Notes: a model not told the origin generated them from the sequence alone. A DNA stretch of 64,000 nt from Escherichia coli (GCF_041886205.1 NZ_CP169029.1); one strand, 5' to 3'; counted from the stretch's first letter, positions 21,766 through 49,952 are shown. Numbers and translations are program-made.

Positions 21766-21862
21766 CTGATGCGCTACGCTTATCAGGCCTACACGTATCC
21801 TGCAATATATTGAATTTGCAGGTTTTTGTAGGCCGGATAAGGCGTTCACGCCGCATCCGGCA
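21766..21862. repeat. REP/BIME pair between fbaA and mscS
   Basis: gcctgatgcgctacgcttatcaggcctac and gtaggccggataaggcgttcacgccgcatccggca in inverted orientation. Confidence 0.7.
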
Positions 21863-34864: not shown

Positions 34865-35010
34865 CTGTAACGGTAAAGCCCTCACCGAAGCGAGGGCTTA
34901 AAGGAGAAGGGTTATGATGCGACTTGTCATCATACTGATTGTACTGTTACTGATAAGTTTCGGAGCTTATTAACAGTCAGTCTCAGGGGAGGAGTCATCC
35001 TCCCTTACCC
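34865..35010 (-). ncRNA. sibC: Sib antisense sRNA, copy 1 (approximate ends)
   Basis: Sib antitoxin RNAs are encoded opposite to and fully overlapping ibs; a minus-strand hairpin plus short U-tract (rc of 34877-34898) marks a probable 3' end. Ends are inferred, not mapped. Confidence 0.5.
34914..34973 (+). CDS. ibsC: Ibs-family type I toxin, 19 aa (MMRLVIILIVLLLISFGAY)
   Basis: ATG ATG CGA CTT GTC ATC ATA CTG ATT GTA CTG TTA CTG ATA AGT TTC GGA GCT TAT TAA; RBS aaggagaagggtt upstream; matches the Ibs hydrophobic toxin pattern. Confidence 0.8.
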   Translation: MMRLVIILIVLLLISFGAY

Positions 35011-35255
35011 TTACTCACTAAATTAGGTCAAAGAATCAACGATGTCAATCAGGGCGATGCGGGGTGCATCGCCCTGAACCGATCATTTGATAGACCCTTC
35101 ATCGCCCACGTTTACTGCCGTAATAGATCCTTTTTCCCAAAAATTATCTCTGTTTTGCATGGGGTTTTTCGAGCACGCTCGAAGAAAAGATTTAAAGGTA
35201 GATCAATGCGTTGTGGTTATTTAAAGAGAGCTTACGATAGCTGGGCAGCATGGGG

Positions 35256-35400
35256 CTGTAACGGTAAAGCCCTCACCGAAGCGAGGGCTTGAAGGAGAAG
35301 GGTTATGATGCGACTTGCCATCATACTGATTGTACTGTTACTCATAAGTTTCCCAGCTTATTAACAGTCAGTCACAGGGGAGGAGCAATCCTCCCTTACC
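35256..35400 (-). ncRNA. Sib antisense sRNA, copy 2 (approximate ends)
   Basis: Second repeat unit, same architecture as copy 1 shifted by 391 bp. Confidence 0.5.
35305..35364 (+). CDS. Ibs-family type I toxin, second copy, 19 aa (MMRLAIILIVLLLISFPAY)
   Basis: Same frame and RBS as copy 1; differs at 2 residues (V5A, G17P). Confidence 0.8.
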   Translation: MMRLAIILIVLLLISFPAY

Positions 35401-35464
35401 CTTACTCACTAAATTAGGTTAAAGAATCAACGATGTCAATCAGGGCGATGCAGGTGTGTCGCCC

Positions 35465-36085: not shown

Positions 36086-36271
36086 AGGGAATCTCCGAGA
36101 TGCCGCCGCAGGCTGTAACCCTTGAACCCTTGGTTCAAGGTGAATGTGTCGTCGCAGTTTTAAGGCTTCTCGGACGGACCGAGCATGCTCACCAACCGCG
36201 GAGCGCCACATTCTTGTGGTATGAAATATCGGCTCAGGGGACTGGCCCGCTTGCGAACATCTCAGAGAAAT
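36086..36271 (-). ncRNA. ssrS: 6S RNA (SsrS), RNA polymerase-sigma70 regulatory RNA
   Basis: Reverse complement of 36086-36271 reads AUUUCUCUGAGAUGUUCGCAAGCGGGCCAGUCCCCUGAGCCGAUAUUUCAUACCACAAGAAUGUGGCGCUCCGCGG...GGAGAUUCCCU, which matches the E. coli 6S RNA sequence as recalled. Confidence 0.95.
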
Positions 36272-41586: not shown

Positions 41587-42681
41587 ATGGCACAACAGAC
41601 TCCTTTGTACGAACAACACACGCTTTGCGGCGCTCGCATGGTGGATTTCCACGGCTGGATGATGCCGCTGCATTACGGTTCGCAAATCGACGAACATCAT
41701 GCGGTACGTACCGATGCCGGAATGTTTGATGTGTCACATATGACCATCGTCGATCTTCGCGGCAGCCGCACCCGGGAGTTTCTGCGTTATCTGCTGGCAA
41801 ACGATGTGGCGAAGCTCACCAAAAGCGGCAAAGCCCTTTACTCGGGGATGTTGAATGCCTCTGGTGGTGTGATAGATGACCTCATCGTCTACTACTTTAC
41901 TGAAGATTTCTTCCGCCTCGTTGTTAACTCCGCCACCCGCGAAAAAGACCTCTCCTGGATTACCCAACACGCTGAACCTTTCGGCATCGAAATTACCGTT
42001 CGTGATGACCTTTCCATGATTGCCGTACAAGGGCCGAATGCGCAGGCAAAAGCTGCCACACTGTTTAATGACGCCCAGCGTCAGGCGGTGGAAGGGATGA
42101 AACCGTTCTTTGGCGTGCAGGCGGGCGATCTGTTTATTGCCACCACTGGTTATACCGGTGAAGCGGGCTATGAAATTGCGCTGCCCAATGAAAAAGCGGC
42201 CGATTTCTGGCGTGCGCTGGTGGAAGCGGGCGTTAAGCCATGCGGCCTGGGCGCGCGTGACACGCTGCGTCTGGAAGCGGGTATGAATCTTTATAGTCAG
42301 GAGATGGACGAAACCATCTCTCCTTTAGCCGCCAATATGGGCTGGACTATCGCCTGGGAACCGGCAGATCGTGACTTCATCGGTCGTGAAGCCCTGGAAG
42401 TGCAGCGTGAGCATGGTACAGAAAAACTGGTTGGTCTGGTGATGACCGAAAAAGGCGTGCTGCGTAATGAACTGCCGGTACGCTTTACCGATGCGCAGGG
42501 CAACCAGCATGAAGGCATTATCACCAGCGGTACTTTCTCCCCGACGCTGGGTTACAGCATTGCGCTGGCGCGCGTGCCGGAATGTATTGGCGAAACGGCG
42601 ATTGTGCAAATTCGCAACCGTGAAATGCCGGTTAAAGTGACAAAACCTGTTTTTGTGCGTAACGGCAAAGCCGTCGCGTGA
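41587..42681 (+). CDS. gcvT: Glycine cleavage system T protein (aminomethyltransferase), 364 aa
   Basis: ORF track 41587..42681; [38 protein letters not shown]. Confidence 0.97.
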
Positions 42682-42704
42682 TTTACTTTTTTGGAGATTG
42701 ATTG

Positions 42705-43094
42705 ATGAGCAACGTACCAGCAGAACTGAAATACAGCAAAGAACACGAATGGCTGCGTAAAGAAGCCGACGGCACTTACACCGTTGGCATCACCGAACAC
42801 GCTCAGGAGCTGTTAGGCGATATGGTGTTTGTTGACCTGCCGGAAGTAGGCGCAACGGTAAGCGCGGGCGATGACTGCGCGGTTGCCGAATCAGTAAAAG
42901 CGGCGTCAGACATTTATGCGCCAGTAAGCGGTGAAATCGTGGCGGTAAACGACGCACTGAGCGATTCCCCGGAACTGGTGAACAGCGAACCGTATGCAGG
43001 CGGCTGGATCTTTAAAATCAAAGCCAGCGATGAAAGCGAACTGGAATCACTGCTGGATGCGACCGCATACGAAGCATTGTTAGAAGACGAGTAA
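42705..43094 (+). CDS. gcvH: Glycine cleavage system H protein (lipoyl carrier), 129 aa
   Basis: ORF track 42702..43094 starts at a TTG; ATG at 42705 gives [20 protein letters not shown]; lipoyl-Lys motif region ESVKAASD. Confidence 0.96.
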
Positions 43095-43103
43095 CGGCTT
43101 TAT

Positions 43104-43175
43104 TCCTCTTCTGCGGGAGAGGATCAGGGTGAGGATATTTACGCCTCACCCTCACTCTCTTCGCAAGGAGAGAGG
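43104..43175. repeat. GC-rich imperfect palindromic intergenic repeat (BoxC-like) between gcvH and gcvP
   Basis: cctcttctgcgggagaggatcagggtgaggatatttacgcctcaccctcactctcttcgcaaggagagagg; shares the motifs gggagagg / agggtgagg / atatttac / cctcaccc with the element after gcvP. Confidence 0.45.
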
Positions 43176-43211
43176 TTCACAATTCACTGCACGTTTCAGG
43201 AACCATCGCTC

Positions 43212-46085
43212 ATGACACAGACGTTAAGCCAGCTTGAAAACAGCGGCGCTTTTATTGAACGCCATATCGGACCGGACGCCGCGCAACAGCAAGAAATGCT
43301 GAATGCCGTTGGCGCACAATCGTTAAACGCGCTGACCGGCCAGATTGTACCGAAAGATATTCAGCTTGCGACTCCGCCGCAGGTTGGCGCACCGGCGACC
43401 GAATACGCCGCGCTGGCGGAACTCAAGGCTATTGCCAGTCGCAATAAACGCTTCACGTCTTACATCGGCATGGGTTACACCGCCGTGCAGCTACCGCCGG
43501 TTATCCTGCGTAACATGCTGGAAAATCCGGGCTGGTATACCGCGTATACTCCGTATCAACCTGAAGTCTCGCAGGGCCGCCTTGAAGCACTGCTCAACTT
43601 CCAGCAGGTAACGCTGGATTTAACCGGGCTGGATATGGCCTCTGCTTCTCTTCTGGACGAAGCCACCGCTGCCGCCGAAGCAATGGCGATGGCGAAACGC
43701 GTCAGCAAACTGAAAAATGCCAACCGCTTCTTTGTTGCTTCTGACGTTCATCCGCAAACGCTGGATGTGGTCCGTACTCGTGCCGAAACCTTTGGTTTTG
43801 AAGTGATTGTCGATGACGCGCAAAAAGTGCTCGACCACCAGGACGTCTTCGGCGTGCTGTTACAGCAGGTCGGCACTACTGGTGAAATTCACGACTACAC
43901 CACGCTTATTAGCGAACTGAAATCACGCAAAATTGTGGTCAGTGTCGCCGCCGATATTATGGCGCTGGTGCTGTTAACTGCGCCGGGTAAACAGGGCGCG
44001 GATATTGTTTTTGGTTCGGCGCAACGCTTTGGCGTACCGATGGGCTACGGTGGCCCACACGCGGCATTCTTTGCGGCGAAAGATGAATACAAACGCTCAA
44101 TGCCGGGCCGTATTATCGGTGTATCGAAAGATGCAGCTGGCAATACCGCTCTGCGCATGGCGATGCAGACTCGCGAGCAACATATCCGCCGTGAGAAAGC
44201 GAACTCCAACATTTGTACTTCCCAGGTACTGCTGGCAAACATCGCCAGCCTGTATGCCGTTTATCACGGTCCGGTTGGCCTGAAACGTATCGCTAATCGC
44301 ATTCACCGTCTGACCGATATCCTGGCGGCGGGCCTGCAACAAAAAGGTCTGAAACTGCGTCATGCACACTATTTCGACACTTTGTGTGTGGAAGTGGCCG
44401 ACAAAGCGGGCGTACTGGCGCGTGCCGAAGCGGCTGAAATCAACCTGCGTAGCGATATTCTGAACGCGGTGGGGATCACCCTTGATGAAACCACCACGCG
44501 CGAAAACGTGATGCAGCTTTTCAGCGTACTGTTGGGGGATAACCACGGTCTGGACATCGACACGCTGGACAAAGACGTGGCTCACGACAGCCGCTCTATT
44601 CAGCCTGCGATGCTGCGCGACGACGAAATCCTCACCCATCCGGTGTTTAATCGCTACCACAGCGAAACTGAAATGATGCGCTATATGCACTCGCTGGAGC
44701 GTAAAGATCTGGCGCTGAATCAGGCGATGATCCCGCTGGGTTCCTGCACCATGAAACTGAACGCCGCCGCCGAGATGATCCCCATCACCTGGCCGGAATT
44801 TGCTGAACTGCACCCGTTCTGCCCGCAGGAACAGGCCGAAGGTTATCAGCAGATGATCGCGCAGCTGGCTGACTGGCTGGTGAAACTGACCGGTTACGAC
44901 GCCGTTTGTATGCAGCCGAACTCTGGCGCACAGGGCGAATACGCGGGCCTGCTGGCGATTCGTCATTATCATGAAAGCCGCAACGAAGGGCATCGCGATA
45001 TCTGCCTGATCCCGGCTTCTGCGCACGGCACTAACCCCGCTTCTGCACATATGGCAGGAATGCAGGTGGTGGTTGTGGCGTGTGATAAAAACGGCAACAT
45101 CGATCTGGCTGATCTGCGCGCGAAAGCGGAACAGGCGGGCGATAACCTCTCCTGTATCATGGTGACCTATCCTTCCACCCACGGCGTGTATGAAGAAACG
45201 ATCCGTGAAGTGTGTGAAGTCGTGCATCAGTTCGGCGGTCAGGTTTACCTTGATGGCGCGAACATGAACGCCCAGGTTGGCATCACCTCGCCGGGCTTTA
45301 TTGGCGCGGACGTTTCGCACCTCAACCTGCATAAAACTTTCTGCATTCCGCACGGCGGTGGTGGTCCGGGTATGGGACCGATCGGTGTGAAAGCGCATCT
45401 GGCACCGTTTGTACCGGGTCATAGCGTGGTGCAAATCGAAGGCATGTTAACCCGTCAGGGCGCAGTTTCTGCGGCACCGTTCGGTAGCGCCTCTATCCTG
45501 CCAATCAGCTGGATGTACATCCGCATGATGGGCGCAGAAGGGCTGAAAAAAGCAAGCCAGGTGGCAATCCTCAACGCCAACTATATTGCCAGCCGCCTGC
45601 AGGATGCCTTCCCGGTGCTGTATACCGGTCGCGACGGTCGCGTGGCGCACGAATGTATTCTCGATATTCGCCCGCTGAAAGAAGAAACCGGCATCAGCGA
45701 GCTGGATATTGCCAAGCGCCTGATCGACTACGGTTTCCACGCGCCGACGATGTCGTTCCCGGTGGCGGGTACGCTGATGGTTGAACCGACTGAATCTGAA
45801 AGCAAAGTGGAACTGGATCGCTTTATCGACGCGATGCTGGCTATCCGCGCAGAAATTGACCAGGTGAAAGCCGGTGTCTGGCCGCTGGAAGATAACCCGC
45901 TGGTGAACGCGCCGCACATTCAGAGCGAACTGGTCGCCGAGTGGGCGCATCCGTACAGCCGTGAAGTTGCGGTATTCCCGGCAGGCGTGGCAGACAAATA
46001 CTGGCCGACGGTGAAACGTCTGGATGATGTTTACGGCGACCGTAACCTGTTCTGCTCCTGCGTACCGATTAGCGAATACCAGTAA
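43212..46085 (+). CDS. gcvP: Glycine dehydrogenase (decarboxylating), glycine cleavage P protein, 957 aa
   Basis: ORF track 43212..46085; [41 protein letters not shown]. Confidence 0.97.
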
Positions 46086-46107
46086 TTTACTGATTCGACT
46101 ATTTTCT

Positions 46108-46130
46108 AAAGGCGCTTCGGCGCCTTTTTA
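46108..46130 (+). terminator. Rho-independent terminator of gcvTHP
   Basis: aaaggcgc-ttcg-gcgcc followed by ttttta. Confidence 0.85.
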
Positions 46131-46159
46131 GTCAGATGACAAAGTACAAAAGTGCTCAG

Positions 46160-46270
46160 ACAGTCCCCTCGCCCCTTTGGGGAGAGGGTTAGGGTGAGGG
46201 GAACAGGCCGGCACTGGCGCGAATATTTACCCTCACCCCGGCCCTCTCCCTGAAAGGGCGAGGGGAAAAG
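46160..46270. repeat. GC-rich imperfect palindromic intergenic repeat (BoxC-like), downstream of gcvP
   Basis: cccctcgcccctttggggagagggttagggtgaggggaacaggccggcactggcgcgaatatttaccctcaccccggccctctccctgaaagggcgaggggaaaag; same motif family as 43104-43175. Confidence 0.45.
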
Positions 46271-46350
46271 CGTGCCAACATTGAAGATTGAGCCAGTTTG
46301 TTAGCAATCTCAAAGATACGTCAACGAATTAATTTTTCTCGGAAAAACAA

Positions 46351-47094
46351 ATGGCTATAGCACTTGTGACCGGTGGCAGTCGCGGCATCGGGCGGACAAC
46401 TGCATTACTGTTGGCGAAAGAAGAGTATACGGTGGCGGTTAATTATCAACAAAACCTCCATGCGGCGCAGGAAGTGGTGAACTTAATCACGCAAGCCGGT
46501 GGCAAGGCATTCGTGCTCCAGGCGGATATCAGCGACGAAAATCAGGTCATCGCAATGTTTACAGCAATCGATCAGCACGATGAACCGCTAGCAGCGCTGG
46601 TCAATAACGCCGGGATCTTGTTTACCCAGTGCACCGTTGAAAACCTTACCGCAGAGCGAATCAACCGAGTACTTTCCACCAACGTGACGGGATATTTTCT
46701 CTGCTGCCGCGAGGCGGTAAAACGCATGGCGCTTAAAAATGGTGGCAGTGGCGGCGCTATCGTCAATGTCTCTTCGGTGGCCTCACGGTTGGGTTCGCCA
46801 GGGGAATATGTTGATTACGCGGCATCGAAAGGGGCGATTGATACGTTAACCACCGGACTATCGCTGGAAGTCGCCGCGCAGGGGATCCGCGTTAACTGCG
46901 TGCGGCCAGGGTTTATTTATACCGAAATGCACGCCAGCGGCGGCGAGCCTGGACGCGTCGATCGCGTTAAGTCGAACATCCCCATGCAGCGTGGTGGACA
47001 GGCAGAAGAGGTCGCGCAGGCCATTGTCTGGCTACTAAGTGATAAAGCCTCTTACGTCACGGGAAGTTTTATCGATTTGGCGGGCGGGAAATAA
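46351..47094 (+). CDS. ygfF: Short-chain dehydrogenase/reductase family oxidoreductase, 247 aa
   Basis: ORF track 46351..47094; SDR motifs TGGSRGIGR (NAD(P) binding) and YxxxK (YAASK). Confidence 0.9.
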   Translation: MAIALVTGGSRGIGRTTALLLAKEEYTVAVNYQQNLHAAQEVVNLITQAGGKAFVLQADISDENQVIAMFTAIDQHDEPLAALVNNAGILFTQCTVENLTAERINRVLSTNVTGYFLCCREAVKRMALKNGGSGGAIVNVSSVASRLGSPGEYVDYAASKGAIDTLTTGLSLEVAAQGIRVNCVRPGFIYTEMHASGGEPGRVDRVKSNIPMQRGGQAEEVAQAIVWLLSDKASYVTGSFIDLAGGK

Positions 47095-47150
47095 AACAGG
47101 GAAGTTGTCTGACCGGATGCAACAAGTATTGCATCCGGTACTTCATCGAC

Positions 47151-48611
<1,461 letters not shown>

Positions 48612-49770: not shown

Positions 49771-49952
49771 GCCTTTGTAGGCCTGATAAGACGCGCCAGC
49801 GTCGCATCAGGCATCGGAGCGCAACCGCCGGATGCGGCGTGAACGCCTTATCCGATCTACGGGCCTCGTCCCTGTTGTGATAAAGGCATCAAATCCCAGA
49901 CATGATAAGACGCGTCAGCGTCGCATCAGGCGATAAATGCCTGATGCGATAC
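49771..49952. repeat. REP/BIME cluster (at least 3 REP units) between convergent yqfA and ygfZ
   Basis: gtaggcctgataagacgcgccagcgtcgcatcaggc, gccggatgcggcgtgaacgccttatccgatctac, and gataagacgcgtcagcgtcgcatcaggc. Confidence 0.7.

Follow-up and report, generated by a model that had tools for sequence, protein, structure and literature searches.

Two copies of the BoxC repeat family flank gcvP in Escherichia coli

The GC-rich palindrome located downstream of gcvP in a 64,000-nucleotide stretch of Escherichia coli DNA (GCF_041886205.1 NZ_CP169029.1; the whole stretch is hereafter called the window) is a full-length, catalogued copy of the BoxC repeat (element 2), and the palindrome located upstream of the gene is an old, decayed copy of the same repeat (element 1); both are ordinary members of their family. 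Descriptions of the family go back to the 1990s and the exact locus figures in a published table, so that the identification itself brings nothing new and its value as a discovery is small. Very probably, element 2 is a composite of a type-A and a type-B motif that was inserted at this position, element 1 is an older copy, and both are selfish or neutral sequences with no role as a pair. According to the ORF list of the window the two elements are intergenic, and the region is arranged as follows (positions counted from the first nucleotide of the window).

42705-43094, + strand: gcvH coding sequence, given as context (ORF list and RefSeq annotation of orthologues)
43093-43175, no strand: element 1, a decayed BoxC composite with a shortened spacer, in the gcvH-gcvP intercistronic spacer; core palindrome at 43106-43172
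43212-46085, + strand: gcvP coding sequence, given as context
46108-46129, + strand: gcvP intrinsic terminator, with an 8-bp stem, a TTCG loop and a T-run
46132-46165, + strand: 5' leader of the type-A half (TCAGATGACAAAGTACAAAAGTGCTCAGACAGTC), common to other BoxC copies and beginning at the insertion boundary
46166-46200, + strand: TMECO/BoxC motif of type A with one mismatch, CCCTCGCCCC-TTT-GGGGAGAGGG-TTA-GGGTGAGGG; regular expression match
46201-46229, no strand: inter-half spacer (GAACAGGCCGGCACTGGCGCGAATATTTA), with homology to the corresponding stretch in other K-12 composites
46230-46264, - strand: TMECO/BoxC motif of type B with one mismatch, CCCTCGCCC-TTTCA-GGGAGAGGG-CCG-GGGTGAGGG; regular expression match
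46265-46287, no strand: right flank of the composite, within the family profile (nhmmer alignment to model position 148)
46288-46328, no strand: single-copy DNA accompanying element 2, the remainder of the ~200 bp inserted in comparison with the short ancestral form of the gcvP-ygfF spacer
46351-47094, + strand: ygfF (short-chain dehydrogenase), present or absent jointly with element 2
47151-48608, - strand: bglA

The gcvH-gcvP spacer (43095-43211) measures 117 bp and the gcvP-ygfF spacer 265 bp. The original prediction had placed the longer repeat downstream of the gcvP terminator, and this terminator proved to be real: direct reading of 46108-46129 gave AAAGGCGC-TTCG-GCGCCTTT followed by a T-run, the DNA fold reached -9.5 kcal/mol (z = -4.0), and the hairpin is kept in Citrobacter, Kluyvera and E. 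coli strain E09, with element 2 adjoining it in the window. The consensus promoter/terminator scanner missed it, probably because the stem takes up part of the T-run, and its confirmation comes from sequence, fold and conservation. At the far end of the region, an 11-bp-stem hairpin (CCGGATGCAAC..GTTGCATCCGG type) was observed between the convergent ygfF and bglA genes (47112-47140; DNA fold -14.7 kcal/mol, z = -5.8), which is probably a bidirectional terminator or a REP-like unit.

Family identity of the two elements

Pairwise comparison revealed that the two elements are related beyond their GC-rich composition. Both are imperfect palindromes made of the same blocks in the same order (GGGAGAGG..GGGTGAGG / CCTCACCC..CTCTCC), and the four motifs originally proposed to be common to them (gggagagg, agggtgagg, atatttac and cctcaccc) were all found in both, in identical order. 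The arms of element 2 (46164-46203 and 46227-46266) are 40 nt long and 83% complementary, with a 23-nt spacer, and those of element 1 (43106-43134 and 43144-43172) are 29 nt long and 72% complementary, with a 9-nt spacer; the longest ungapped match between the elements extends over 20-23 nt with 83-90% identity. The shared atatttac is homologous spacer sequence, at which other composite copies have AACATTAAC or AAAAATTAC, and element 1 retains the ATTTAC end of the composite spacer despite the shortening. A 20-mer pattern, GGGAGAGGNNNNGGGTGAGG, matched three times in the 64-kb window (43115 and 46180 on the + strand, 46231 on the - strand) and not once in 100 dinucleotide shuffles of it. These counts, together with the shared motifs and palindromes, indicated that the resemblance is real and not an effect of composition.

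In the literature, the repeat has reportedly been called BoxC, by Bachellier et al. in the 1990s, and PIT (potential intrastrand triplex), by Hoyne and Maher in 2000/2002. The TMECO consensus, 5'-CCCTCNCCC N3-6 GGGNGAGGG N3 GGGNGAGGG-3' (Holder et al. 2015, NAR 43:10126, PMC4666352), has been equated with the BoxC repeat of the 1990s and with the PIT element of Hoyne and Maher (PMC4666352). A regular expression for this consensus matched element 2 on both strands, at 46166-46200 (+) and 46230-46264 (-), the second loop being TTA in the + motif (type A) and CCG in the - motif (type B), and each of the five inverted pairs of K-12 shows this combination of A with B. The K-12 orthologue of element 2 corresponds, base for base, to TMECO no. 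10 (3,045,989-3,046,024) and no. 11 (3,046,087-3,046,052) in Table 1 of Holder et al., the type-A half (46166-46200) being no. 11 and the type-B half (46230-46264) no. 10. Element 2 matches the known family in its sequence and in being intergenic, chromosomal, multi-copy and catalogued through its K-12 orthologue. At element 1 (43093-43175) the strict expression found no match, its blocks being degenerate (CCTCTTCT / GGGAGAGGA / GGGTGAGGA); this element differs from the known copies in failing the strict consensus, in being absent from the published table and in having a 9-nt spacer instead of one of 23-29 nt. The description of element 2 as the longer copy was correct, and it is also the more complete of the two.

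For comparison, K-12 provided the pairs at hrpB-mrcB, fepB-entC, alx-sstT and lldD-trmL plus 13 single copies. Three K-12 head-to-head pairs align with element 2 over both motifs, the intervening spacer and some of the flanking DNA, and an nhmmer profile built from these three BoxC pairs only, with the window loci excluded, matched element 2 with E = 1e-37 (46148-46287) and element 1 with E = 7e-7 (24.5 bits) on the - strand and 1e-4 on the + strand. Over the whole window, the next best match beyond the two elements had E = 8. The common blocks, the pattern matches and the profile E-values of both elements support the earlier view that they belong to one repeat family and that gcvP is bracketed by two of its members, element 1 before the gene and element 2 after it.

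An Rfam scan of the whole window at the gathering threshold returned no family at either element. The Rfam matches found elsewhere in the window were two tandem Sib antitoxin RNA genes (RF00113, 134 and 137 bits; 34898-35048 and 35289-35439, - strand), which lie near the 6S RNA gene (36088-36271, - strand), naRNA4, a REP-derived nucleoid-associated RNA (72 bits; 49780-49857, - strand), and ES036 (47 bits; 21785-21827, - strand).

Two other repeat families were considered for both elements and rejected. The REP/BIME core GCC(G/T)GATG...CATC(C/A)GGC, that is GCCGGATG/CATCCGGC, is absent from both by direct reading, and so is the central inverted repeat motif ..CCCCAGTCAC.. of the ~127-bp ERIC/IRU unit, which we did find in three of the compared loci (L011, L013 and L022). 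REP/BIME units are similar in being short GC-rich intergenic palindromes, often located at gene 3' ends or inside operons, and they occupy the same gcvH-gcvP position in other genera, but they are a different sequence family, elements 1 and 2 having no GCCGGATG-type core. REP elements have a cognate transposase family, RAYT, and demonstrated roles in mRNA stabilisation and in gyrase/IHF binding; we know of nothing comparable for BoxC. ERIC/IRU elements are likewise enterobacterial intergenic imperfect palindromes, found in the same gcvH-gcvP position in some genera (see below), but their ~127-bp sequence is unrelated and not of the G/C-block triplex type. That the resemblance is due to chance or GC composition, or that the elements are REP/BIME or ERIC and not BoxC, is thus practically negligible as an explanation: both elements are indeed GC-rich palindromes in intergenic DNA, as REP units are, but the shuffles, the regular expression and the profile E-values of 1e-37 and 7e-7 speak against it, as do the missing REP and ERIC cores and the lack of an Rfam match. 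We found no later work on the TMECO family in the literature, and the BoxC, ERIC and BIME literature yielded nothing newer.

The coordinates originally given for element 2, 46160-46270, cover its palindromic core, but the repeat unit is wider and runs from ~46132 to ~46287. Upstream of the 36-nt type-A motif, some 15-20 nt are kept in all 15 K-12 and window copies (GnGCnC..C(G/A)GTC), and a leader of ~40 nt, cAGAcTGATGACAAAGT..AAAAAnGnGCnCGGnCrGTC, is common to five copies, namely element 2 and those at fimH-gntP, alx-sstT, yihR-yihS and fepB-entC. The leader was delimited from an alignment of 15 type-A halves, the flanks of K-12 single copies and the comparison with the empty site; in element 2 it comprises ~30-40 nt and starts at ~46132, directly after the gcvP terminator, and homology to the profile ends at ~46287. 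The homology of the inter-half spacer (46201-46229) was established by sequence alignment and profile alignment. It was also observed that the published definition of the motif as 34-37 nt omits the shared leader (46132-46165 in the window; loci L100, L006, L098 and L005). In comparison with these catalogued motifs, the unit described here adds the ~40-nt leader and the shared spacer, amounting to ~125-155 bp per composite.

A genome-wide count bore out the multi-copy nature of the family. The 140-bp element 2 query was found at 75,301 places in 5407 of the 5426 complete E. coli genomes, with a median of 16 BoxC copies per genome (range 1-27), and only 35 of the 75,301 places were on plasmids. 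This family size fits the 23 TMECO motifs at 18 sites published for K-12 (Holder et al. 2015, PMC4666352).

Insertion of element 2 and alleles of the gcvP-bglA interval

The gcvP-element 2-ygfF junction was present in 3025 complete E. coli genomes and ygfF in 3054, so that ~56% of the genomes carry ygfF together with element 2, and ~44% have an unrelated 125-bp spacer and no ygfF. In ~2371 genomes (e.g. O157:H7 ATCC 43889 and strain M1/5), this 125-bp spacer, which contains a REP-like hairpin, replaces ygfF and element 2, one breakpoint lying where the terminator ends (~46130) and the other at the bglA stop codon. Four alleles of the interval between gcvP and bglA (46130-47150; loci L001, L002, L009 and L104) were observed in Escherichia: ygfF with the BoxC insertion (~3025 genomes); ygfF with a 59-bp spacer of ancestral type, as in strain E09, whose ygfF is only ~88% identical (at most 28 genomes, a figure obtained by subtracting the 3026 genomes with the single-copy segment from the 3054 with ygfF); the 125-bp spacer with a REP-like hairpin and no ygfF (~2371 genomes); and, in a divergent Escherichia (L009), a 298-aa ORF matching PF13557 (Phenol_MetA_deg).

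The polarity of the change was read from outgroups, for which gcvH-anchored loci from 80 species were collected and 25 gcvP-ygfF spacers were read out. The gcvP-ygfF-bglA order is kept in Citrobacter, Enterobacter, Kluyvera, Lelliottia, Pantoea, Erwinia and others. The spacer between gcvP and ygfF was 55-78 bp long in 24 of the 25 cases, the exception being a 165-bp spacer with REP-like repeats (L027), and in all 25 the terminator hairpin was directly followed by the ygfF ribosome-binding site. No BoxC profile match was found between adjacent gcvP and ygfF genes among the gcvH-anchored outgroup loci, and the 59-bp spacer of strain E09, which reads GGCGCCTTTATTTTTGGGGAAAACAAATG, is of the ancestral type and devoid of BoxC. 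These short BoxC-free spacers in the outgroups and in strain E09 indicated that element 2 is part of a ~200-bp insertion after the gcvP terminator.

The net insertion in the window is 206 bp and consists of the leader, the A + B composite and ~65 bp of single-copy sequence. The stretch 46270-46345 is single-copy and present in 3026 genomes, i.e. those carrying element 2, and neither strain E09 nor the outgroups have the segment 46288-46328. The insertion is flanked by TTTTTAG on the left and TTAATTTTT on the right, as compared to TTTATTTTT in the empty site; the junction was read by hand, the placement of gaps by MAFFT being arbitrary there. These T-rich, imperfect flanks would be compatible with a short T-rich target duplication, their complexity being too low for proof. 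In its palindromic ends and in having an empty allele (strain E09), the insertion is reminiscent of bacterial MITEs such as Correia/NEMIS and RUP, which are also small, non-coding, palindromic and dispersed, with filled and empty alleles; it differs from them in showing no clear target-site duplication between its T-rich flanks and in carrying ~65 bp of single-copy DNA. Because of this single-copy portion, the insertion may be a recombinational import rather than a transposition. We know of no parent IS, transposase or other copying mechanism for BoxC.

As a separate observation, BoxC profile matches were obtained in the next spacer, between ygfF and bglA, in Lelliottia, Pseudocitrobacter and an Enterobacter species (L018, 6629-6685; L023, 10240-10402; L025, 10197-10273). 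The neighbourhood has thus gained BoxC at different spacers in different genera.

Element 2 was also evaluated as an intrinsic terminator and discarded, the hairpin being followed by no T-run on either strand (the adjoining sequence is AAAAGCG after the + strand and CTGTCTGAGC after the - strand) and the scanner making no call there. It is improbable that element 2 regulates the locus, be it by a stable hairpin that would block read-through into ygfF or by a structured ygfF 5' leader, with the insertion having uncoupled ygfF from gcv transcription. In favour of this proposal, the ygfF ribosome-binding site lies directly after the terminator in the outgroups and in strain E09 (GGGAGAAACGTTATG), and the window has 206 extra bp at that point, including a -79 kcal/mol hairpin, and a weaker Shine-Dalgarno sequence (CTCGGAAAAACAAATG); moreover, the promoter scanner detected no sigma-70-like promoter in 42600-47300, and ygfF is dispensable in ~44% of the genomes. 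However, besides the missing T-run, BoxC copies are found in many unrelated contexts, and for PIT elements the literature records neither promoter nor terminator activity, nor any influence on RNA polymerase (PMC4666352). We prefer to regard element 2 as a selfish or neutral insertion, which may still have uncoupled ygfF from gcvP.

Stability of gcvP and the spacer after gcvH

The original prediction had further suggested that the pair of repeats could mediate recombination or act as insulators, and neither suggestion was borne out. A 601-bp probe across gcvH, element 1 and gcvP was single-copy and collinear, with 97-100% identity, in 5425 of the 5426 complete E. coli genomes, the gcvP 3' end was likewise present in 5425 of them, and in none of the 5426 genomes was gcvP seen to be deleted or inverted between the repeats. 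The structural variation that we did find in other strains affects ygfF and element 2, not gcvP, and its breakpoints lie at the terminator (46130) and the bglA stop codon, none of them in element 1. Moreover, the ungapped match between the elements is only 20-23 nt long, with 83-90% identity, which does not exceed the minimum length that RecA recombination usually requires. Regarding insulation, earlier reporter tests of the Maher laboratory revealed no promoter or terminator activity of PIT elements (via PMC4666352), and earlier work found that these elements had no effect on RNA polymerase and did not block replication in vivo (via PMC4666352). A function of the two copies as a pair, either as recombination substrates rearranging gcvP or as bracketing insulators, is therefore very improbable, even if they belong to one family and flank gcvP, a large polymorphism adjoins element 2, and the variability of BoxC/TMECO loci reportedly exceeds that of control intergenic sites (PMC4666352). 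Selfish or neutral repeats with no dedicated pair role would most likely account for both copies.

The spacer in which element 1 resides deserves separate consideration. Across four E. coli genomes (the window, K-12, O157:H7 and M1/5), element 1 has identical stems and differs in its loops only, and the palindrome is cleaner in the divergent Escherichia locus L009. In other genera (L008-L087), the slot between the gcvH stop codon and a conserved ATTCACTGCACGTTTCAGGAACC block is filled by different hairpin-forming repeats. BoxC composites, intact or partial, were found in Enterobacter cloacae, E. asburiae, Pseudocitrobacter, Buttiauxella, Pluralibacter, Siccibacter and two further genomes, those of Enterobacter and Pseudocitrobacter being intact. 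Cedecea, Phytobacter and an Enterobacter MAG have simple CCCTCTCCC-N4-GGGAGAGGG hairpins, several Citrobacter, Lelliottia and Enterobacter carry REP/BIME units, and ERIC occupies the slot in C. youngae CCUG 30791, C. koseri and Kluyvera. Over 75 gcvH-gcvP spacers, the fold z value had a median of -2.6 and was below -2 in 67% (mononucleotide shuffles). No hairpin was found in the slot of Erwinia, with 23-nt spacers and z about 0, or of Rosenbergiella, with 8 nt. A universal requirement for a hairpin in this spacer was ruled out by these unstructured spacers of 8-23 nt, and a stem-loop after gcvH is consequently common but not obligatory.

One may ask whether element 1 is kept as an intercistronic RNA stem-loop that would protect the gcvT-gcvH mRNA from 3' exonucleases or set the GcvH:GcvP ratio. 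REP elements in other operons have been shown to act as mRNA-protecting stem-loops, and by analogy with them an mRNA-stabilising hairpin is plausible for element 1, which lies inside the gcvTHP transcript, has a stable predicted fold (-40.6 kcal/mol, z = -4.7) and is fixed in E. coli (5425 of 5426 genomes), with substitutions confined to the loops in the four phylogroup representatives. The occupation of the same slot by BoxC, REP/BIME, ERIC or simple hairpins in most of the Enterobacteriaceae examined, with a median z of -2.6, hints at function over neutrality for element 1. On the other hand, Erwinia and Rosenbergiella manage with no hairpin, repeats accumulate in any permissive spacer, the low divergence within E. 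coli limits what the contrast between loops and stems can show, and the z values come from mononucleotide shuffles. We consequently hold such a role to be a genuine possibility that is still somewhat less probable than its opposite; element 1 would survive as a tolerated or mildly useful intercistronic stem-loop of the gcvTHP operon.

Folding and decay of BoxC composites

Both elements are predicted to fold stably. For element 2, the RNA fold gave -79 kcal/mol (z = -6.5) and the DNA fold -39.5 kcal/mol (z = -6.1), and according to nearest-neighbour folding its C block can pair with either of the G blocks; the RNA of element 1 can form either three small hairpins or one long one. G-rich oligonucleotides of types A and B form stable intrastrand triplexes in vitro, with Tm values of 70-82 C, the purine-motif triplex having been demonstrated by CD and NMR for both types, and the published negative control was a four-G-to-C mutant of exactly the type-A sequence of element 2 (PMC4666352). 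When the complementary strand was added, the duplex prevailed over the triplex, and in vivo DMS footprinting revealed no stable triplex (PMC4666352).

Among ygfF-positive strains, the gcvP-ygfF spacer is 98% identical and the differences are concentrated in element 2. The indels are of the slippage type: O111:H8 and strain 357900 lack 6 bp (AGGGTT) between the two G blocks, and the G-run at the right end varies from 3 to 5. The C block also shows a G>A change. In strain EH01-18-04-A, a deletion of 76 bp between two direct CCCTCTCCC blocks at alx-sstT (L006 vs L106) has left a simple hairpin, CCCTCTCCCC-AAAA-GGGGCGAGGGG, and deletions of this kind are a likely route from composites to the simple hairpins of other genera. 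At adk-hemH (L091 vs L105), the 157-bp BoxC-bearing spacer of K-12 is replaced in O157:H7 and others (~2500 genomes) by 53 unrelated bp that contain a hairpin; this site was examined as a second filled/empty pair and rejected, as the whole spacer is swapped and there is no clean insertion or deletion. The variants described here correspond to the classes 'TMECO mutated', 'palindrome effect' and 'intergenic change / region missing' of Holder et al. (PMC4666352), the gcvP-ygfF locus itself showing the 'region missing' and 'TMECO mutated' kinds. TMECO loci were found to vary more between strains than control sites (PMC4666352), and the link between BoxC and local variability is correlative.

Taken as a whole, the sequence of events that we favour is as follows. 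Element 2, whose type-A half (+ strand) and type-B half (- strand) stand head to head on either side of a 29-nt spacer, arrived within a ~200-bp segment that was inserted into the T-rich tail of the gcvP terminator, upstream of ygfF, in a lineage that now makes up ~56% of the sequenced E. coli. Element 1 is an older copy of the family, from which most of the spacer and several consensus positions have disappeared. At the DNA level, both would be non-coding selfish or neutral repeats. Their near-perfect palindromy and the direct repeats of G/C blocks would favour fold-back into a hairpin, a cruciform or a single-strand triplex, and such a fold-back, transient during replication, could lead to replication slippage and small deletions; we infer that these structures form in vivo and cause the variants.

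A broader proposal would treat BoxC composites as mobile modules with the defined ~40-nt leader, which insert into terminator T-tracts or intercistronic spacers and are interchangeable with REP/BIME and ERIC as 'hairpin cassettes' in Enterobacteriaceae, the insertion of element 2 having freed ygfF from gcvP read-through before this gene decayed and was lost from part of the species. We consider this combination of claims rather unlikely.

The variants inside element 2 and the alx-sstT deletion show composites decaying to simple hairpins, and the gcvP-ygfF locus serves as a worked example for the question, left open by Holder et al., of whether such regions had been inserted or deleted, the answer here being insertion. 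The occupation of the slot after gcvH by BoxC, REP or ERIC, depending on the genus, offers a testable case for the recruitment of repeats as intercistronic RNA hairpins.
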